Assembly: GCA_017960645.1 (NCBI GenBank)
Contig: JAGCYU010000004.1
Coordinates: 7,152 to 71,151 of the forward strand
Length of the DNA: 64,000 nt
DNA from: Alphaproteobacteria bacterium
GTDB taxonomy: Bacteria > Pseudomonadota > Alphaproteobacteria > CAAHEQ01 > UBA3637
Direction of reading: 5' to 3'
In this document: one piece after another, positions 22,304 to 53,561 of the stretch
Position numbering within the stretch: the first letter of the stretch is position 1
How the letters are laid out: every line of letters begins with the position of its first letter
Notes under the pieces: generated by a model
What the model was told of the DNA's origin: nothing
The model's input: the letters and a program-made list of their open reading frames with translations, nothing else
Databases searched by the model: none
Made by a program: the position numbers and the translations under genes

Positions 22304-22819
22304 ATGAAAAAAATTTTAATCCTATTTGTTTCGTGTTTGTGCGCTCTTAAGGCTTTCGCGGCATCTAATGCAGATGTTGAAGTGTTGGGCGTTTTTGATG
22401 ATTGGTCCGCTTTTTTATACAAAGATGAAGCGGGGCAAGTGTGTTACATGGCTACTGAACCGATAAAATCTCAAGGAAAGTATAATCGCCGAGATGATGT
22501 GTTTTTAATTGTAGCGCACCGTCCAACAGAGCAATCTTTTGATGTTGTGAGTATTAATGCGGGTTATACTTATAGGAAAGGCAGTAAGCCTTATTTAACT
22601 ATTGATAATAATAAACCTATCACATTGGCCGTTTTTAATGACACAGCTTGGGCAAAGGATGATGCAACAGATGCTAAATTGGTTGCCAATATGAAAAAGG
22701 GAACTCGGGCTGTTTTAAAAGGAACTTCTGCTCGGGGAACAGCAACAACTGATACATTTTCTCTTAAAGGCTTTGGTAAGGCTTATCAAGCAATTAATAA
22801 AGCATGCGGCCGCGAATGA
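22304..22819 (+). CDS. invasion-associated locus B (IalB) family secreted protein
   Basis: Signal peptide followed by an IalB-like sequence (WSAFLYKDEAGQVCYMATEP). Confidence 0.7.
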   Translation: MKKILILFVSCLCALKAFAASNADVEVLGVFDDWSAFLYKDEAGQVCYMATEPIKSQGKYNRRDDVFLIVAHRPTEQSFDVVSINAGYTYRKGSKPYLTIDNNKPITLAVFNDTAWAKDDATDAKLVANMKKGTRAVLKGTSARGTATTDTFSLKGFGKAYQAINKACGRE

Positions 22820-23883
22820 AAAAAGAATTAATTGGTTTGGATTTAAATGAATTAAAGACCGAACTGGAGAGTATCGGAGAAAAGCCTTTTCGCGCAAAAC
22901 AATTATGGCAATGGATGTATAATAAAGGAGAGACCGATTTTGATAAAATGTCCAGTTTGTCAAAAGAGTTTCGCTCTCTTTTAAAAGAAAAATATACGGT
23001 TTCACATCCAAAAATAATAGCAGAACAAAAATCCAAAGACGGAACGCGCAAGTGGTTGATGGAGTTTTTGGATGGGGCGCGCGTGGAGTGTGTTTATATT
23101 CCGGAAGATGATAGGGGCGCTGTTTGTATATCAACCCAGGTTGGCTGTGCTCAAGGATGCAAGTTTTGTCATACAGGAACACAAAAAATGCTCAGAAATT
23201 TGACCGTCGCTGAAATTGTTGGACAGGTGATGGCCGCACGAGATGCCTATGGGGAATGGCCAACAAAAACAGATGAAAATCGTATGCTATCCAATGTTGT
23301 CTTTATGGGTATGGGCGAACCATTGGCTAACTTTGATAATTTGAAAAAGGCTTTGTTGATTTTAAACGATGGGGATGGTATGGCTATCTCAAAGCGTAAG
23401 ATTACAGTATCTACATGCGGGCTGGCTAATAAAATACCAGAATTGGCCGATTTAGGGGTTAAATTGGCAATTAGTTTGCATGCTCCTAATAATCAGATAC
23501 GTAATCAAATTATGCCCATCAATAAAGCTTTCCCGTTGGAAAAGTTGATAAAAGCATGCAAAGAATATCAAGCAAAATGTGAACGTCGCTCGTTTATTAC
23601 AATGGAATATGTGATGTTAAAAGGTGTGAATGATTCTATTCAATGTGCGGAAGAATTGACAAAACTAGTACAGGAATTGGAAGTTAAATTCAATTTGATA
23701 CCTTTTCATCCATGGAAAAATTGCCCATTTGAACCGTCAAGCCCAGCAACTATCGCAAAGTTTGCAAAATTTTTAGAGTCTAAATGGTTTGCTGCGCCGA
23801 TTCGCAGAACCCGTGGGGAAGATATCATGGCAGCTTGTGGCCAATTAAAGACAGCAAAAGAGTCTTTGAGTTTGGAGGAGACT
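22816..23883 (+). CDS. rlmN: 23S rRNA/tRNA adenine-C2 methyltransferase RlmN (radical SAM); no stop codon before the next gene
   Basis: RlmN N-terminus and the radical-SAM motif CxxxCxxC (GCAQGCKFCHTG) are present. Homology ends at about ...CGQLKTAKESL. The frame continues without a stop into a prepilin-like ORF. Confidence 0.8.
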
Positions 23884-24693
23884 ATGGAAAATAAAAATGA
23901 ATCTGGCAGATCTATGGTTGAGTTAATAGGTATTTTATGTCTCATGGGATTGTTGACAATAGGTGGCATTCGTTTTTATAGATATGGTATGGATGAGACT
24001 ATTGCTCAAAATACTTATGAAGAAGTTCAGCAACGGGCGGTGACCAGTTTGGAACGTTTTAACAATCGACGTTATCAGTTTGATTCCCGTCCTGTATCTA
24101 ATATAACACCTCATGGTTATAATATTACTGTGAGACAGCATTCTTCTAACCGTGAATATATCGTTGTTTCTGTGACAGGCGTTTCAGATGGTGTTTGTCA
24201 ACATATTCTTAGGAAAATTGGCAATACTCAAAGTGGGTTTTTGCCTGTGGCAGGCCTTAGTCTCAACAGTTCTAATTATCAGACAAATGAGTTATCAGAA
24301 TCACTTTGTCCTCAAAGTGGTAATGTTAATATGACTTTTTTCTTTCATCGTTCCAAAAAAGCGGATAGAGATAGTTCAGATATTTTAAGTACATGCTCTT
24401 CAACAAGTGATTGCTTGCAACGCGTAGGGGATGCAAATGCTTGTTTGAAATGCGATACAACGAATCGTTTATGTGTTTTGGATGACACAAAATGCAGTTC
24501 AGGACAAGTTTGTCATCAACTTGCTGGGGCTTTATATCCTAAATGTTATCAAGTGGCTGATAATGCTAGCGAAGATCAGCCCTGCGGCTTAGGAGAATGT
24601 TGGACAGTTGTTGATGGTATTTGTGTTCCAGATAGTAGTTTATGTTTAGATGCTGAAAGCACTTGTGGAAGTGACGGTTTTTGTACTAACTAA
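23884..24693 (+). CDS. prepilin-like (class III signal) Cys-rich secreted protein
   Basis: An internal ATG is preceded by GGAGGAG. The leader is MENKNESG, and the mature N-terminus RSMVELIGILCLMGLLTIGG has Glu at +5. The C-terminal ~90 aa contain about 19 Cys. Confidence 0.55.
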   Translation: MENKNESGRSMVELIGILCLMGLLTIGGIRFYRYGMDETIAQNTYEEVQQRAVTSLERFNNRRYQFDSRPVSNITPHGYNITVRQHSSNREYIVVSVTGVSDGVCQHILRKIGNTQSGFLPVAGLSLNSSNYQTNELSESLCPQSGNVNMTFFFHRSKKADRDSSDILSTCSSTSDCLQRVGDANACLKCDTTNRLCVLDDTKCSSGQVCHQLAGALYPKCYQVADNASEDQPCGLGECWTVVDGICVPDSSLCLDAESTCGSDGFCTN

Positions 24694-25772: not shown

Positions 25773-25859
25773 TTTGTTTTGTTGTTATTTTTTTAAAGGG
25801 ATGTTTCGGTCGCTTCAGCTTAAGTGATTGAAACATCTTTTCTTTATAAAGGGGATTTT

Positions 25860-27104
25860 ATGAGACGAGTGGTAATTACAGGGATGGGTGTTGTTTCTCC
25901 ACTAGGTCGAGGGTTAGAGACAAACTGGAATGCTTTAAAGACAGGAAAATCTGGTGTTGTGTTTTTCCCAGAAGCAGATGGCTACCCTTTAGCAGTTAAA
26001 ATTGCAGGGCATATTCCCCGTGGAGAAAATTCTGGTCAGTTGGATGTCAATTCTGTTCTGTCCGTCAAAGAGCAACGCCATCATGATGCTGCAACTTTGT
26101 ACGGAGTTGCGGCGGCTATGGATGCTATGCAAGATGCTGGTTTCCTAAATAGTCCCGTTGAAAATAAAGAAAAGTTTGGGGTTGTATTTGGCAGCGGCCA
26201 AGGGGGATTAAACAGATTTTTTGATGGTGTAAAAATTTATCTGGATCAAGGGGCCAATCGCATTTCTCCTTTTTTTATGCCGTCTATTATTATCAATCAG
26301 ACAGCTGGTTTTTTATCAATTAAATATGGATTGGAAGGTCCAAATTTGGCAGTTTCTACAGCATGTGCTACCGGGACACATTCTATAGGAGAAGCTTATC
26401 AGTATATTCAAGCAGGTTATGCAGACCGTATGTTGGCAGGAAGTACAGAAGCTCCCTTAAATCCTTTAGGAATTGCAGGTTTTGCACAAATGCGAGCATT
26501 ATCTAAAAGAGAGGACACTCCGCAACAGGCGTCTCGTCCATGGGATAAGAAACGTGACGGTTTTGTCATGGCAGAAGGCGCCGGTGCTTTGGTACTAGAA
26601 GAATATGAATCAGCAAAAGCCAGAGGGGCAAAAATTTATGCTGAAATTATAGGATATGGCTTGTCTGCAGATGCTTATCATATTACAGCCCCTGGGGGAA
26701 CAGGCGCTATTCGAGCGATGCAAATGGCGTTAAATCAAGCTAATTTACAGCCTGCTCATATTGATTATATCAATGCACATGGTACTTCTACCCCGGCAGG
26801 AGATATGGTTGAATTTTGCGCTGTTAAAGAAGTTTTTGGTGTGGATGGACCCGCGATGTCTTCAACAAAATCAATGACTGGTCATATGCTAGGGGCTGCA
26901 GGTTCTGTTGAGGCCGTGTATAGTGTCCTATCTTTGATACATAATGTTATGCCTCCTACTATTAATTTGGCGAATCCAGAAGAAGAAACACAAGGCTTTA
27001 ATTTGGTACCAAACCAAGCTCAAGAAAAGCAACTGAATATAGTTTTATCTAATTCTTTTGGTTTCGGTGGGACTAACGCCTGTTTAATCTTTAAAAAGGT
27101 GTAG
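25860..27104 (+). CDS. fabF: 3-oxoacyl-ACP synthase II
   Basis: KAS II family with active-site Cys (AVSTACATG) and the HGTSTPAGD motif. Confidence 0.92.
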   Translation: MRRVVITGMGVVSPLGRGLETNWNALKTGKSGVVFFPEADGYPLAVKIAGHIPRGENSGQLDVNSVLSVKEQRHHDAATLYGVAAAMDAMQDAGFLNSPVENKEKFGVVFGSGQGGLNRFFDGVKIYLDQGANRISPFFMPSIIINQTAGFLSIKYGLEGPNLAVSTACATGTHSIGEAYQYIQAGYADRMLAGSTEAPLNPLGIAGFAQMRALSKREDTPQQASRPWDKKRDGFVMAEGAGALVLEEYESAKARGAKIYAEIIGYGLSADAYHITAPGGTGAIRAMQMALNQANLQPAHIDYINAHGTSTPAGDMVEFCAVKEVFGVDGPAMSSTKSMTGHMLGAAGSVEAVYSVLSLIHNVMPPTINLANPEEETQGFNLVPNQAQEKQLNIVLSNSFGFGGTNACLIFKKV

Positions 27105-27109
27105 TATTT

Positions 27110-28096
27110 ATGCGCCATACGGTTGTATTTTATTTTTTGATTATTTTTATCGTTGTGGGCATTATGGGGGGTAGTGTTTTATCCACCTATAGTCAGTTTG
27201 TTGCAGAGGGGCCGCTTGAAAGCGAAAAAACAATTTTGATCGAAGCAGGGCGTTCTGTGCGCAAAATTGCAAAGCAATTATATAGAGAAGGTATTATCAA
27301 TTCACCTGCCGTCTTTGAAATTGGTGTTCGAGCCAGTGGTAATACAATGAATATTAAGGCGGGAGAATATTCTATCCCAAAACGTTCCAGTTCTAAAACC
27401 GTGATGAATATTTTGACCAGCGGCAAAACATATATTCGAAAGTTTGTTGTTCCCGAGGGGTTGACATCTATTCAAATTGTAGAGTTAATGGATGGTATGT
27501 ATGGCTTAATGGGGGAAATAGAAAAAATTCCTCCAAATGGTACTTTAATGCCAGATACGTATTGGTATTCTTATGGAGATTCTAAACAAGATTTGTTGAT
27601 ATATATGCAAAATAGCATGAAACGGACGTTGGATGAATTGTGGGCTACAAAAAGCAAAACTCTGTCCTTTAAAACACCTGAAGAAGCAGTGGTTATGGCC
27701 TCTATTGTTGAAAAAGAAACAGCCAAGGATTCAGAAAGATCTCATATAGCGGCTGTCTTTCATAATCGGCTCGCAAAGAAAATGAAGTTGCAATCTGATC
27801 CGACTGTGATTTTTGCGGTTACGCAAGAGCGTGGAGAGCTTAAACGTAAATTGACTTATTCTGATTTAAGAGTTCAGCATCCAAGTAATACCTATGTTAT
27901 TGCAGGGTTGCCGGATAAACCTATTTGTAATCCGGGGAAAACAGCATTGCAAGCTGTCTTAAATCCAGATAGCAGTCAAGATTTATACTTTGTTGCAGAT
28001 GGCAAAGGAGGGCACATTTTTGCGAAAACTTATGCTGAGCATGAACAAAATGTAGCGGCTTATAGAAAATTCATGAATGCTCAGCGTTTGCAATAA
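27110..28096 (+). CDS. mltG: endolytic murein transglycosylase MltG (YceG family)
   Basis: N-terminal TM helix plus a YceG domain (LQSDPTVIFA). Confidence 0.85.
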   Translation: MRHTVVFYFLIIFIVVGIMGGSVLSTYSQFVAEGPLESEKTILIEAGRSVRKIAKQLYREGIINSPAVFEIGVRASGNTMNIKAGEYSIPKRSSSKTVMNILTSGKTYIRKFVVPEGLTSIQIVELMDGMYGLMGEIEKIPPNGTLMPDTYWYSYGDSKQDLLIYMQNSMKRTLDELWATKSKTLSFKTPEEAVVMASIVEKETAKDSERSHIAAVFHNRLAKKMKLQSDPTVIFAVTQERGELKRKLTYSDLRVQHPSNTYVIAGLPDKPICNPGKTALQAVLNPDSSQDLYFVADGKGGHIFAKTYAEHEQNVAAYRKFMNAQRLQ

Positions 28097-49871: not shown

Positions 49872-51578
49872 ATGGTTTATTTAACAATTTTATTAACAAT
49901 TTTAATAAGTATTTTGATTTACACGTTTGATCCGGCTCCAAACAGGTCTGAACACGATATAACCGGCGCTGAAGCGTATGTTTTAGGATTTATCAACCAA
50001 CACCAAGCCGCCCGCGACTTTATGAAGCATTGGTTAGGGCATAGTAAGGCTAATGACGGCGCACATGGTGTTGTTGGCGGGAAAGGCGTTATATTATCTG
50101 GGGATACAGATCCTGGAACAGAACAAGGGCGTATGGAAAGTTTTATGCTCAAGGGATTAACCTCAAATATACACACTTATAATGGGAGTGGATTTGCAAC
50201 TGGTTCAGATAACGGGACCTTTAAATCTGCTTATGTGTGTTTGGATGAGCATTTAGAAAACCTGGTTGCTGAAACAAATTGCCGAAATCGTTATGTTGTG
50301 ACGTATGCAAAAGATAAACCGGATTGGTGGACAGATCCAAAAGAGCAGGAAAAAAAGGCCACAAAAGGTCAACGGTGGCGGCGTGCCATTGCTCAACGAA
50401 CTCATGGATCGTATGGGTGCGGTGTATTAACTATGGCCGACGGGACAGGAAGCAAAAATTGGTGTTATAAAACCGGTAAGAAGAACACAATCAAACCCAA
50501 AGAGAGTTCATGTGCCACGGGCGAACGTGAGGGGAAATATTGCATTGACAATGGCGAAGGATGTCAGACTTTGCTGCCCTCTGGAATTCAAGTATTCTTG
50601 GAAAATGAAATAAATAATGATTTAAGTGATAGACTGGTGTGTATCAGCACGGTAAAAAATCCCTATGTTACAGAAGGATTAATGTTCCAATATGATTCCA
50701 TCGATAGTGCGGGAAATGGAGCGCCTGCCGCAAATGGGACTAATCTTACGACGCATTCCTCTCCCTTTACTTGGGCGAATTCGGAAGTGGGAACCCCTGT
50801 CAATTGGAATGCATCCGGCTCTCCAACATGGGAAGATAGCTCAAAAAGTTCCCCTATGATTCCACATAACAACGGACATGCCTTTAATTTTCAATTGGGA
50901 AATAATGATTCTACATTTACTTTGACTATAGTAGCAAAGGTTCCAAATAAAACTGCCCAGACAATCATAGGTCCTGTTACCCCATCAGGACTAAATATTC
51001 CTGATTTAACCGTTGATGATGGCGCTGGTAATAAGAAAAAAGCAAATATTGGGATGTATTATATGAATGATTGTTCAATAGCAAGTGAAGGCGCGGTTAC
51101 TGGGGATTGTTTTTTGCTCTTGACCAGAAAAGATGCCAGCCATGCGGATACAATTGATGGAAACATCATTAGCTATGATAATAATAATAATGGAATAATA
51201 TCGTGGACAATTGTCAAGCGTCCTGATCTTGATGGAATTTCAACGCTTTATTGGTATAACGGAGCAGAGCCGGTGTGTGATAGTGGTAGTGAAGTAGTAA
51301 AACACCCCTATATAGATGGAGGGGGAACGCGAAACAATATGACTTTAGGGGGGGGATCTGGCGGTAGTGCAGATGATACTGTCAGAATTTATGCCATACG
51401 GTATTACAATCGCCCCTTGACAAGGCGGGAAATCAACCGTAACTTCCGTGCAGATGGGGAACGATATGGCGTCGGCAGTTGGACGGGGAGCTGTACCAAC
51501 AAATGCGAGGTAGATTCGGATTGTTTGAATACATATCAAAGTTGCAAAAGTGGCGAATGCAAAATAAAGGATGAATAA
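49872..51578 (+). CDS. membrane-anchored surface protein with LamG-like (concanavalin-type) domain and Cys-rich C-terminal tail
   Basis: N-terminal hydrophobic anchor. DTVRIYAIRYYNRPLTRREINRNF matches the LamG hallmark strand (RIYNRALSAxEI). The tail reads CTNKCEVDSDCLNTYQSCKSGEC. Confidence 0.6.
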   Translation: MVYLTILLTILISILIYTFDPAPNRSEHDITGAEAYVLGFINQHQAARDFMKHWLGHSKANDGAHGVVGGKGVILSGDTDPGTEQGRMESFMLKGLTSNIHTYNGSGFATGSDNGTFKSAYVCLDEHLENLVAETNCRNRYVVTYAKDKPDWWTDPKEQEKKATKGQRWRRAIAQRTHGSYGCGVLTMADGTGSKNWCYKTGKKNTIKPKESSCATGEREGKYCIDNGEGCQTLLPSGIQVFLENEINNDLSDRLVCISTVKNPYVTEGLMFQYDSIDSAGNGAPAANGTNLTTHSSPFTWANSEVGTPVNWNASGSPTWEDSSKSSPMIPHNNGHAFNFQLGNNDSTFTLTIVAKVPNKTAQTIIGPVTPSGLNIPDLTVDDGAGNKKKANIGMYYMNDCSIASEGAVTGDCFLLLTRKDASHADTIDGNIISYDNNNNGIISWTIVKRPDLDGISTLYWYNGAEPVCDSGSEVVKHPYIDGGGTRNNMTLGGGSGGSADDTVRIYAIRYYNRPLTRREINRNFRADGERYGVGSWTGSCTNKCEVDSDCLNTYQSCKSGECKIKDE

Positions 51579-51596: not shown

Positions 51597-53561
51597 ATGA
51601 AATACGATTTAAAAACAGAACGCAAAGATGAATCCGGCGCAATTATGTTGGAAATTATTGCCGTTTTGGCTTTAATGGGTGTTATGGGGGCAATGTTGTT
51701 CCGCCAGATCAATCACCGTAACCAAGAATTGCACAATATTCAAATGGCATCTGAAGCTCGTATTATGAAGGAAGCTTTTTCTGCATGGATTCAAGCCAAC
51801 TTGGCCACTTTACGTAGAGATTGCAGAGCTGAATCTACAATCGATGTTATACCGTGTTCCATAAATTATTCTGCTCAATATGGGTCTACTGCAATCGGAC
51901 AAGCAATTGTTAATGATGGTTTTTTACCGGATGGTTATGATGGAAGTGGAGTCTATGCAGATAGCATAGCTTATGACTATAATCTCAGTTTGTTTTCTTA
52001 CTGGCGCGGAAACGCCACAAGCGGTGCCCCAGCATATTATGGTGTTGTCATTCCAAACCCGAATATTTTGCCAGATGGCGGGGGGGAAACAACGACATGG
52101 AACTTTAAGCGCGCAGCACGTGTTGCCATGTTAATCGGTGGCGATGGGGGTGTGTATGGCCCTGATATTACGGGGGACTCTTTATCTGGAAGTGCCGGCA
52201 GCTGGCAGTTAGACACAAAAACTGGTAGCACTTTACTTTTTATGACATCTGATCAAGCCCAATTGCCTATCTATGGTGCGGTGACGGGGTTTGATGTGTA
52301 TCAACCCGAAGTAGAAGTTGAAGATGTTAAAGTGAATATTCCAAAAGACTTTGGAATGGTGGTCAGGGATCTTGGATCCTATGGAGCATTTGCCGTGGGA
52401 ATGGGTGATGCAAATTGTTATGATAGTCGTATTCAGCATCATACAGCATTAGGAGATGGCACCATTAACCCTGATACTGTTAAAATACCAAAAAATGATG
52501 GGTCTTGTCAGGCTGTGTTGTGGGTGGATGGCGCAGATTCTAAAGTTTATACCAGTAAAGATATTGAGGTTGGCTATGATCCCGTGACTGGGGCTTCATC
52601 CGTCAGTATTAAAGGCGAAAGTGATAAAGCGGGAAAAGTTATCGTGTATGATGATCAAGGTCGTGCCAATATTATCTTAGAGGGCAAAACAGATGCAAGT
52701 ACAAGCACCGCCGCCAATACTTTAACCTTTAAGGATGGTAAGATTTTAACAAATAAGACCACGGGAAATGTAGGGGCAACAGGAAGCCAAGAGCAATATC
52801 AATACCAACTGGATCCTGCTAATACATCCGTTGTGTATGATATTCGTTTGGGTGCTATGGGTGGCATGAAACTGAGTGAACTTTTGCCAGACGTGATTTT
52901 GAAAGATGTGGGACGCATTAGTTCAGGAGGAAGGGTGACTAAGCCTTCTTGTCCAAAGGGATATGTTCCCGCCATTTTAGTGATCCCAGGTCATCAAACT
53001 CCGCGAGTAGCGGAAGGAAGTGCTGCACCTCAGATATTGCTACCTAACTCTAGCGATCCTAACAGTCCTGTGATCGGATATTTACGGCCGCCACAGTTAA
53101 AAATAAAAGATTCGGAGGATCAAGAGATTGTTAATCTTGGTACTGACCCCGCTTATACTCCAATATTCGCACAAGAGCCTACTCCAAAAGAGAGTGCGGC
53201 TGTATCGGAATGGACTATTAGCGGTTCGTCTACTACTTATCTACGTTACATTGCCTATCAAACGTTTTGTGTGAAAGATGGGACAATTGGTGCAGCCAGC
53301 GGAAATGACGTTCAGAATTTGAACAGCACAACCAAAGTGGGTACTGCATCCACATCTTTAACTGCAACGGATTGTGCCACTATGGGATTTGATTTCAGTT
53401 CAGGGAAGTGTGTTGTATGGACTTTGAACCACATCAATGCTGTGGCGGATGCCGAACAAAAAGAAAAACTTTGCCGGAGTGCAGGGTACTTTTGGGATGA
53501 CAAAGAAACCGGTAGTAATAAATGTAAAACTGCAAAGCCAAGCCAGCAACAGGGTGACTAA
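51597..53561 (+). CDS. large (654 aa) prepilin-like protein with class III signal
   Basis: The leader MKYDLKTERKDESG is followed by AIMLEIIAVLALMGVMGAML with Glu at +5. The body is long, Gly/Thr-rich and extracellular-like, and the C-terminus is Cys-containing. Confidence 0.6.
   Translation: MKYDLKTERKDESGAIMLEIIAVLALMGVMGAMLFRQINHRNQELHNIQMASEARIMKEAFSAWIQANLATLRRDCRAESTIDVIPCSINYSAQYGSTAIGQAIVNDGFLPDGYDGSGVYADSIAYDYNLSLFSYWRGNATSGAPAYYGVVIPNPNILPDGGGETTTWNFKRAARVAMLIGGDGGVYGPDITGDSLSGSAGSWQLDTKTGSTLLFMTSDQAQLPIYGAVTGFDVYQPEVEVEDVKVNIPKDFGMVVRDLGSYGAFAVGMGDANCYDSRIQHHTALGDGTINPDTVKIPKNDGSCQAVLWVDGADSKVYTSKDIEVGYDPVTGASSVSIKGESDKAGKVIVYDDQGRANIILEGKTDASTSTAANTLTFKDGKILTNKTTGNVGATGSQEQYQYQLDPANTSVVYDIRLGAMGGMKLSELLPDVILKDVGRISSGGRVTKPSCPKGYVPAILVIPGHQTPRVAEGSAAPQILLPNSSDPNSPVIGYLRPPQLKIKDSEDQEIVNLGTDPAYTPIFAQEPTPKESAAVSEWTISGSSTTYLRYIAYQTFCVKDGTIGAASGNDVQNLNSTTKVGTASTSLTATDCATMGFDFSSGKCVVWTLNHINAVADAEQKEKLCRSAGYFWDDKETGSNKCKTAKPSQQQGD

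Follow-up and report, generated by a model that had tools for sequence, protein, structure and literature searches.

The rlmN gene described here has no stop codon of its own; its reading frame continues into a downstream gene for a cysteine-rich, pilin-like protein and closes at that gene's TAA. We think it likely that this is a real, lineage-specific fusion in frame 0 that arose through an indel at the junction of the two genes, that it yields both a long product and an independently initiated one, and that it is a tolerated accident.

The window, i.e., the whole 64-kb stretch of DNA that was analyzed, comes from an uncultured ruminant-gut alphaproteobacterium. A single ORF on its forward strand (22804..24693), open for 629 codons, spans a complete RlmN and the pilin-like gene. 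Read from the sequence, the first in-frame TAA, TAG, or TGA of the rlmN frame lies at 24691-24693, which bears out the preliminary description, where the missing stop between the two genes had been pointed out. The same account placed the end of the RlmN homology near 23870, and the TIGR00048 match indeed stops near nucleotide 23865. It also took the ORF from 22804; the frame is open from there, but relatives and public gene calls favor the ATG at 22816 as the rlmN start. This ATG overlaps the stop of the preceding gene by four nucleotides, and the same ATGA overlap and start are found in the gene calls of four related loci (L001-L004) and in the public calls of the 625-aa protein. Judged from these gene calls, the true rlmN start is almost certainly the ATG at 22816, with a product of 625 aa. 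The 270-codon open stretch beyond rlmN is not a matter of chance, since a conserved gene uses this frame. The features are as follows.

22816..22819, forward strand: ATGA overlap of the rlmN start ATG (22816-22818) with the TGA stop of an IalB-family gene (22304-22819), read from the sequence
22816..23865, forward strand: RlmN-homologous part (TIGR00048, Pfam RlmN_N, and Radical_SAM)
23848..23883, forward strand: indel-variable junction tract KTAKESLSLEET, 36 nt, compared with six orthologous loci
23874..23880, forward strand: Shine-Dalgarno-like GGAGGAG, read from the sequence, with its GGAGG core 5 nt from the ATG at 23884
23884..23970, forward strand: putative class III-like signal, read from the sequence, with leader MENKNESG (23884-23907) followed by RSMVELIGILCLMGLLTIGGI (23908-23970)
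23884..24693, forward strand: pilin-like gene, 269 aa plus the TAA that also ends rlmN, nested in frame in the long ORF
23892..23894, forward strand: out-of-frame TAA, which would be the rlmN stop in the phase of four of six relatives
24394..24684, forward strand: Cys-rich C-terminal module, residues 171-267, with 14 Cys, invariant in the alignment

RlmN is a dual-specificity radical-SAM methyltransferase that forms m2A2503 in 23S rRNA and m2A37 in tRNA, and it is dispensable in E. coli. The RlmN part of the long ORF scores 420.3 bits with TIGR00048, for which the cutoff is 290 (residues 4-354 of the 629-aa ORF, model positions 4-348 of 355), and it also matches Pfam RlmN_N and Radical_SAM (PF21016 and PF04055). 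Its radical-SAM CX3CX2C motif reads GCAQGCKFC, an upstream Cys lies in AVCISTQ, and a C-terminal Cys lies in MAACGQL; we take the mechanistic cysteines to correspond to C118 and C355 in E. coli numbering. All catalytic Cys are kept, and AVCISTQVGCAQGCKFC and MAACGQL are invariant in a five-sequence RlmN alignment. Identity to RlmN of the nearest relatives is 87-91%, and dN/dS is 0.03, equal to the value among relatives, although a very recent relaxation would escape such a test. There is no other lesion in this part, and every residue that is invariant in the five-sequence alignment is present. A stand-alone RlmN ends soon after ACGQL at a length of ∼350-385 aa; the product here is 625 aa.

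Downstream, the predicted protein begins with the pattern MENKNESG|RSMVELIGILCLMGLLTIGGI, in which the leader ends in Gly, Glu is at +5, and ∼21 hydrophobic residues follow. Class III signals consist of a hydrophilic leader ending in Gly or Ala, followed by 20-25 mainly hydrophobic residues, often with Glu5 (PMC10191384). The pattern found here corresponds to this and is conserved in orthologs, six of which keep (E/L/F)GRS(M/T)xEL with these variants. The class III signal originally proposed thus holds for the Gly-ending leader, the Glu at +5, and the hydrophobicity, but the residue at +1, Arg, is unusual for a pilin, and the protein has no match to PF07963 or TIGR02532, even at E <= 10. Members of the wider family also stay below threshold (11-17 bits versus 21.2 for PF07963 and 12-15 bits versus 16.3 for TIGR02532). 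An hhalign comparison gives 97% probability against the N terminus of another family member, one that scores above the Pfam thresholds for Bundlin and PilS. The AlphaFold2 model (pLDDT 75.8) predicts a helix spanning residues 6-60 together with a beta-sheet head, i.e., a "lollipop" fold, for which the top Foldseek match in the PDB is TcpA (8uhf_E; E = 7.7e-4, probability 1.00, TM-score only 0.31/0.40), with PilS (1q5f) second. With moderate confidence, the predicted fold is closest to type IVb pilins. In all, the sequence pattern, the relatives in the family, and the predicted fold together suggest that the protein is pilin-like. It was correctly described as Cys rich: we count 17 Cys, of which 16 are in the presumed exported part and invariant in the four orthologs aligned, and the model predicts short beta-hairpins in the Cys-rich module.

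As a gene of its own, the pilin-like sequence is well represented. Four standalone homologs of 268-272 aa are 58-68% identical to it and share its start Met, and there are two further orthologous loci. In all six loci it is a standalone ORF, full length (268-272 aa) wherever the contig covers the whole gene, as five contigs do, and its dN/dS is 0.11-0.2. These and other relatives were obtained from a protein collection search and exact look-ups; pattern-based scans for the family in GTDB species-representative genomes and JGI metagenomes gave no match. The family is large, with ∼1600 representative clusters at 50% identity (1603 representatives), and we found no Pfam or NCBIfam family that matches it and, in a literature search, no paper containing its N-terminal motif. 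Ten members with long N-terminal extensions were considered as further fusions and rejected, as the extensions have no Pfam match, are of low complexity, and look overcalled. The exact 269-aa sequence is absent as a separate protein from a collection of 15 billion proteins. Altogether, the RlmN and pilin-like halves both still appear to be functional genes.

The relatives show what the fused locus departs from. In the six orthologous loci, which come from six related species, the genes run in the order mnmG, parC, IalB, rlmN, pilin-like, fabG, acpP, fabF, and RlmN is 354-359 aa long. A comparison of the rlmN 3′ end with relatives had been proposed as a check, and it finds an rlmN stop in six of six orthologous loci and none here. 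The same holds more widely: 82 of 84 related rlmN loci were readable (78 from GTDB species-representative genomes and four from ENA metagenome contigs), all encoding 348-384 aa, and the 120 closest RlmN clusters span 349-378 aa. Within its 90%-identity RlmN cluster, this member is the only one with the long form, and the RlmN tails of relatives extend 4-29 residues after ACGQLK. On these sequence comparisons, the rlmN fusion is specific to its lineage.

The phase of the two genes is set by the length of the junction tract, measured from the conserved KTAKE codons to the downstream ATG. This length is 31, 31, 31, 32, 34, and 38 nt in the six orthologous loci and 36 nt in the window. Among these, 36 nt alone gives phase 0, and the lengths in relatives give phases +1 or +2, so that their rlmN, stop included, reaches into the downstream gene by 17, 14, 14, or 4 nt or finishes 1 nt short of it. 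The rlmN stop has thus been lost, as had been suspected, but through a change of frame at an indel-variable junction and not through a point mutation in the stop. In the phase of four of the six relatives, rlmN would stop at the TAA at 23892-23894, which stands in the context C TAT GGA AAA TAA, compared with AAT GGT AAA GCA TAA in the related locus L003; ribosomes translating rlmN would need a -1 shift to meet it. There are five junction-length states among seven lineages, and a single phase-0 state is about what chance would give; the junction data therefore discriminate neither selection against phase 0 nor selection for it.

The start signals of the downstream gene have stayed in place. The ATG at 23884 had been reported to lie behind a strong GGAGGAG ribosome-binding site, and this motif is found at 23874-23880 with 5 nt between core and ATG. 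At the same place, relatives have TAAGGAG, AGAGGA, GAAGGGA, or AAGGAA. We considered whether GGAGGAG is a stronger, compensatory Shine-Dalgarno sequence and rejected this, as the TAAGGAG of relatives fits the consensus over more bases. Local RNA folding around the site is unremarkable (z = -0.74, no better than shuffled sequence), and a scan for promoters and terminators was likewise no better than shuffled sequence and is uninformative on an internal promoter. The ATG and a Shine-Dalgarno sequence are kept in six of six orthologous loci, and this comparison supports the earlier suggestion of independent initiation, by which a separate prepilin-like product would start at 23884.

We envisage the following origin. 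In the relatives, rlmN and a type IVb pilin-like gene are tightly packed in different phases, and the short tract from the end of RlmN conservation to the downstream ATG gains and loses bases freely. At its present 36 nt, this tract puts both genes in one phase, so that the rlmN frame first meets a stop at the TAA that closes the pilin-like gene. Ribosomes starting at 22816 would then make a 625-aa RlmN-prepilin protein, and those starting afresh at the conserved Shine-Dalgarno sequence and ATG 23884 would make the normal 269-aa prepilin-like protein. The hydrophobic N-terminal segment would target the latter with its N terminus inside the cell and its C terminus outside, placing the 16-Cys head in the periplasm; the long product would be oriented likewise, and its RlmN part would face the cytoplasm. 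Most simply, and most likely, the fusion state is a neutral or mildly harmful accident and not a new system, one that may be tolerated because the C-terminal tail of RlmN is unconstrained and RlmN is dispensable in E. coli.

The fusion is found in several public data sets. The cluster table lists 7 contigs with the exact 625-aa protein, and the look-up of encoding contigs gave 10. Its sources are the ENA assemblies ERZ28018909, ERZ28655167, and ERZ28654090 (with MEGAHIT-style contigs among the ENA ones), the Logan assemblies of SRR12529115 and SRR12529104, and the NCBI protein MBP5343617.1 from a metagenome-assembled genome (MAG), which is named only "RlmN"; the identical junction also occurs in XIEF21-1 scaffolds from two BioSamples. 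Over the junction, five distinct contigs that we compared (loci L085-L092) show 100% identity with the window at the level of assembled sequence. The public copies are all identical in DNA across the gene and may represent one clonal strain from one ruminant study.

Could the junction be an artifact after all? The true junction would then have one base more or two fewer, and rlmN would stop at the TAA at 23892-23894; a one-base change would indeed restore the phase of four of the six relatives, with the stop 8 nt into the pilin-like gene. Yet the same junction and exact product occur in ENA assemblies (at least three), in Logan assemblies of two separate SRA runs, and in the NCBI MAG, and there is no homopolymer longer than 4 in the tract. 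The assembly does not seem prone to frameshifts, since the other window genes scanned have strong, near-full Pfam matches and no split ORFs were seen. The sequencing or assembly error raised at the outset is thus effectively refuted by independent public assemblies, and we consider it extremely improbable. Programmed recoding is a very unlikely reading as well. Here, a -1 frameshift or slippage in the rlmN tail would bring ribosomes to that same TAA, 8 nt into the downstream gene, and the long product would be a minor by-product. Shine-Dalgarno-like sequences within a coding frame stimulate frameshifting in known cases, e.g., dnaX and prfB, and the in-frame GGAGGAG could act in this way. But the segment 23845-23895 contains no X XXY YYZ heptamer, its sole repeat being GCA AAA G, and no stable structure follows (z = -0.74), so that the combination of slippery heptamer and stimulatory element expected of a programmed -1 site was not found; moreover, relatives terminate normally without such a device. 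Early pseudogenization, in which a membrane-anchored extension of 270 residues disables RlmN and this lineage is on the way to losing the gene, seems to us unlikely. It would fit the position of the catalytic Cys of MAACGQL, only ∼12 residues before the extension, as in E. coli RlmN this Cys probably belongs to a mobile segment at the C terminus; it would also fit the non-essentiality of rlmN in E. coli and the fact that this is the sole long form among several hundred homologs examined. Against it stand the absence of any other lesion, with all invariant residues of the five-sequence alignment in place, and a dN/dS equal to that of relatives, though blind to a very recent event.

The long protein could also be seen as a precursor that resolves itself. 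The 625-aa product would insert with RlmN in the cytoplasm, and a prepilin peptidase would cut after the Gly at 23905-23907, which would set free a soluble RlmN with a tail of 16 residues (LSLEETMENKNESG after ...ES) and leave a mature pilin-like protein. In that case the fusion would do no harm, or would even tie the levels of the two proteins to each other. Prepilins are known to insert with a cytoplasmic leader, the peptidase acts on the cytoplasmic face, and leader length is variable (PMC10191384). Since leader and cut are both on the cytoplasmic side, a cytoplasmic enzyme ahead of the signal is topologically coherent, and the preliminary description went too far in denying such a fusion any biological sense. 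From topology, a prepilin peptidase might thus be able to cut the long product. The intact pattern of leader, Gly(-1), Glu+5, and hydrophobic residues speaks for it, as do the lack of relaxed selection on RlmN and the tolerance of 4- to 29-residue tails after ACGQLK in relatives. However, no prepilin peptidase or pilus machinery was found in the window or the compared loci: a six-frame search for the A24-type GxGD.K motif was negative for the 64-kb window and for ∼0.6 Mb of related loci, the window genes that were scanned include no assembly ATPase, platform, or secretin, and Pfam annotation of 30 neighboring window genes returned housekeeping functions only, with no pilus machinery. Nor is there a recognizable domain upstream of the signal among the best 150 of the 1603 family representatives; we met no precedent in the literature consulted for a leader of ∼360 residues, and the +1 Arg is atypical. 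Such a self-resolving precursor is in our estimate improbable, and a role of RlmN as a prepilin leader peptide, with active RlmN and mature pilin-like protein from one translation event, is quite improbable.

The tolerated accident that we favor has partial counterparts among known systems. Genes that have lost their own stop are known to run on to the next one in frame, and same-strand overlaps in phase 0 are rare, making up 0.26% of overlaps in one data set (Sabath et al. 2008, PMC2542354). The present case resembles these overlaps in that the upstream gene runs to the next in-frame stop, the phase-0 state is rare, and the starting point is the usual overlap of 4-17 nt (PMC2542354). It differs from them in that the rlmN stop was not mutated; instead, a length change upstream of the overlap shifted the phase, and the rlmN extension covers the whole downstream gene, 270 codons, whose start signals are kept. 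As an RlmN, the protein matches TIGR00048 over the full length with a score that exceeds the curated cutoff, and every Cys motif is present, but at 625 aa versus 348-384 aa it is unlike other members because it lacks its own stop. Nested in-frame initiation is known in E. coli from infB (IF2 alpha/beta), clpB (93/79 kDa), and cheA (long/short). As in these genes, one frame here contains an internal Shine-Dalgarno sequence and ATG, and the short product would be identical to the C-terminal portion of the long one. The E. coli examples are conserved and functional in both forms, whereas the nesting described here occurs in a single lineage and joins two unrelated genes whose products have opposite locations in the cell. 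Like the type IVb pilins TcpA, bundlin (BfpA), and PilS, the downstream protein has a hydrophilic leader ending in Gly and Glu at +5, and its model predicts a helix of ∼55 residues followed by a beta-sheet head, with TcpA and PilS as the best fold matches. Unlike them, it has Arg at +1, a short leader of 8 residues, an extra 16-Cys module, and no match to an N_methyl HMM; its gene has no pilus-assembly genes nearby and lies within a housekeeping rlmN-fabG-acpP-fabF cluster.

These results have a practical side, as public annotation labels the whole 625-aa ORF "RlmN" (MBP5343617.1) and frame-0 fusions of this kind conceal the downstream gene from gene callers. They also provide a clean, dated example of an indel-prone junction of overlapping genes that samples all three phases, with the rare phase-0 state seen surviving in a natural population. 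The gene that is concealed here belongs to a large, uncharacterized pilin-like family. If the long product is made, it would be a natural test of whether a prepilin signal functions behind a cytoplasmic domain of 360 residues and of whether prepilin peptidase tolerates such a "leader."

The rlmN frame is open from 22804 and meets no stop codon before 24693, a run of 629 codons read directly from the sequence. The NCBIfam model TIGR00048 (RlmN) matches its residues 4-354 with 420 bits (cutoff 290), and Pfam finds RlmN_N and Radical_SAM. The match to residue 354 places the end of RlmN homology near nt 23865, after which the first stop is the one at 24693.

22816, + strand: ATG, almost certainly the rlmN start; forms an ATGA overlap with the stop of the upstream IalB-family gene, exactly as in relatives; product 625 aa
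23874-23880, + strand: Shine-Dalgarno (SD)-like GGAGGAG
23884-24693, + strand: pilin-like inner gene, 269 codons from the ATG at 23884; product begins MENKNESG, followed by RSMVELIGILCLMGLLTIGGI

The preliminary description had rlmN begin at 22804, which almost certainly does not hold, but the open frame, the GGAGGAG, the internal ATG and the class III-like signal it reported are all present. As described, the leader ends in Gly, with Glu at +5 and then about 21 hydrophobic residues; however, the Arg at +1 is unusual, and two prepilin N-terminal HMMs did not match the protein. Its cysteines total 17.

Searching public contigs for the exact sequence recovered the 625-aa product from several sources.

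ENA ERZ28018909: 84.8-kb MEGAHIT-style contig
ENA ERZ28655167 and ERZ28654090: XIEF21-1 scaffolds, BioSamples SAMN15830150 and SAMN15830190
Logan assemblies: runs SRR12529115 and SRR12529104
NCBI protein MBP5343617.1: Alphaproteobacteria MAG, equal to window 22816-24693, the whole 625 aa named RlmN

Across 3-8 kb, junction included, five distinct fetched contigs (loci L085-L092) show 100% identity to the window; the public copies are all identical in DNA, some perhaps from the same study, and may represent a single strain. The one open frame is thus reproducible in public assemblies. No homopolymer in the junction exceeds four bases, and in the other scanned window genes the Pfam domains match strongly and over nearly their full length, none of the ORFs being split. 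Together with the recurrence of the identical junction, this makes a sequencing or assembly error, one of the explanations first offered, very unlikely. The exact 269-aa sequence was absent as a separate record from the protein collection searched. One scaffold (ERZ28655167 scaffold_292; L086/L089) is the same as the window to about 25,800, after which roughly 20-25% of positions differ, across fabF and yceG (compared with window 25800-27690); either the assembly merged two related organisms into a chimera, or a recombination breakpoint lies here.

A collection of 5.8 billion clusters held four homologues of the 269-aa part, all stand-alone (58-68% identical, 268-272 aa, common start Met), and two more orthologous loci were reached through the closest RlmN proteins. 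The window and these six loci share the gene order mnmG, parC, IalB, rlmN, pilin-like, fabG, acpP, fabF, yceG where contigs are long enough. In all six, as the suggested check of the rlmN 3' end reveals, rlmN has its own stop (RlmN 354-359 aa).

Junction tract (conserved KTAKE codons of rlmN to the downstream ATG; window 23848-23883) and phase of that ATG relative to rlmN.
L093: 31 nt, phase +1, rlmN stop overlaps the downstream gene by 17 nt
L001: 31 nt, phase +1, overlap 14 nt
L003: 31 nt, phase +1, overlap 14 nt
L002: 32 nt, phase +2, overlap 4 nt
L094: 34 nt, phase +1, stop 1 nt before the ATG
L004: 38 nt, phase +2, overlap 4 nt
Window: 36 nt, phase 0, no rlmN stop until 24693

Only the 36-nt tract of the window gives one shared phase among the seven loci, a state unique among relatives. 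In the phase of four of the six, the window rlmN would stop at TAA 23892-23894. RlmN tails past ACGQLK are unconserved in relatives (4-29 residues). On this comparison, the fusion originated when the rlmN tail, which is unconstrained and prone to indels, changed in length, not through mutation of a stop codon, and the proposed loss of the stop is borne out as a change of phase. We also gathered 84 related rlmN loci from rumen and gut Alphaproteobacteria that are uncultured, CAG:495 and Candidatus Scatocola among them; all 82 with a readable 3' end (78 GTDB species-representative genomes and four ENA metagenome contigs) encode RlmN of 348-384 aa. The 120 closest RlmN clusters span 349-378 aa, and the window protein is the sole long member of its 90%-identity cluster. 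Given these own stops and normal lengths, the fusion is restricted to a single lineage; no search in this analysis found another RlmN-pilin fusion. In a more distant relative (L030, 4165-4581), the rlmN-fabG slot holds a different small secreted protein with Gly/Tyr/Arg/His-rich repeats (YYGRRHHGW...), so the slot seems to collect lineage-specific exported genes.

Both parts appear to be maintained. In the RlmN part, the CX3CX2C motif and the two mechanistic cysteines are intact, and identity to the nearest relatives is 87-91%. Its pairwise dN/dS of 0.032-0.036 matches the values among relatives (0.028-0.059), with dS saturated. For the pilin-like gene, every pair compared gives a dN/dS of 0.11-0.2, and this gene is therefore under purifying selection. 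Its start signals are intact, and the ATG and upstream SD are retained in all six relatives, so that independent initiation at 23884, as the preliminary description proposed, is expected. The gene overlap in relatives suggests translational coupling through termination and re-initiation; in the window such coupling would be lost, and fresh initiation at the SD would have to take over.

An AlphaFold2 model of the pilin-like protein (five-sequence alignment, mean pLDDT 75.8) places a helix over residues 6-60 and gives the head a beta-sheet plus a single helix; short hairpins in the C-terminal region bear most of the cysteines. The first Foldseek match in the PDB is the type IVb pilin TcpA (8uhf_E, E = 7.7e-4, probability 1.00, TM-score 0.31/0.40), and the second is PilS of Salmonella Typhi. 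A family profile search returned 1603 representative proteins at E <= 0.001 (79 at E <= 1e-10), with mostly the first ~110 residues in common; members in fetched loci start ...GRSM(V/I)EMLGVLAIIGVLS and have varied heads. One member passes Pfam thresholds for Bundlin (35.1 bits) and PilS (32.7 bits), and hhalign aligns the window family to it with 97% probability over the N-terminal 48 residues; others fall just under threshold for N_methyl, TIGR02532 and GspH. Based on predicted fold and these profile matches, we interpret this protein as a divergent type IVb-like pilin or pseudopilin. Sixteen of its cysteines lie beyond the membrane segment and are invariant, which is consistent with an oxidising environment outside the cytoplasm. 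Neither a prepilin peptidase nor assembly genes were found in the 64-kb window or fetched loci.

The family comprises about 1600 uncharacterised representative clusters at 50% identity, with Arg at +1 (P0005-P0153; loci L011, L018, L029, L036, L039, L047, L060, L063, L081), and we found no curated family or paper matching it or its N-terminal motif. Its heads are very variable (136-980 aa), many with Cys-rich spacers, and many members share a C-terminal module that resembles a lectin and ends ...WW.A...C.A.G...VCR. Public gene calls of many members extend upstream through repetitive low-complexity translations, e.g., MTKGDNTSNTTKGDNTS, AGMTENIGSAGMTENIGSA and SGRIPHPVTLRRSETKTRGS (seen in P0044, P0048, P0020, P0022, P0071 and P0075), which suggests short repeated DNA elements just 5' of family genes. 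Other genes in the window also stood out.

51597-53561, + strand: second pilin-like gene, 654 aa, leader ...KDESG followed by AIMLEIIAVLALMGVMG; hhalign 62% probability against the family N-terminus
49872-51578, + strand: upstream of it, 568-aa protein, membrane segment at the N-terminus, Cys-rich tail (CTNKCEVDSDCLNTYQSCKSGEC)
15651-16796 and 16806-17963, - strand: adjacent ankyrin-repeat proteins, 381 and 385 aa, unusual in bacteria and typical of host-associated lineages

Neither the 654-aa nor the 568-aa protein had a Pfam or NCBIfam match.

What would this locus produce? We infer that it makes both a 625-aa RlmN-prepilin protein and a prepilin of 269 aa. Prepilins are targeted by SRP and the Sec translocon; their leader lies in the cytoplasm and the peptidase cuts on the cytoplasmic face (PMC10191384). 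The 625-aa product would therefore be coherent as a membrane protein. RlmN would then remain in the cell interior, with the Cys-rich head on the other side of the membrane. In principle, the peptidase could resolve the fusion itself, cutting it into RlmN and mature pilin, but we consider this improbable: in none of the best 150 of 1603 family representatives does a recognisable domain precede the signal, and their ten longest N-terminal extensions have no Pfam match and resemble over-called low-complexity sequence. Programmed frameshifting at the rlmN end is likewise unlikely, as the junction lacks a slippery heptamer and folds locally no better than shuffled sequence (z = -0.74). Our default reading is a tolerated accident, which rests on the unconserved RlmN tail of relatives and on E. 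coli, in which rlmN is dispensable.

Nested in-frame initiation is known from infB, clpB and cheA, and the window locus is formally alike; however, the genes it joins are unrelated, and the arrangement is not conserved. Overlaps and fusions are known to arise when an upstream gene is prolonged as far as the next stop in its frame, and a survey of bacteria put phase-0 same-strand cases at just 0.26% of overlaps (PMC2542354). The RlmN-pilin fusion is a fresh instance of this recognised event rather than a new type of system. Its value lies in correcting annotation MBP5343617.1, which hides a gene, in illustrating neatly how the phase of a junction drifts, and in perhaps offering a natural test of how far a prepilin signal is tolerated.
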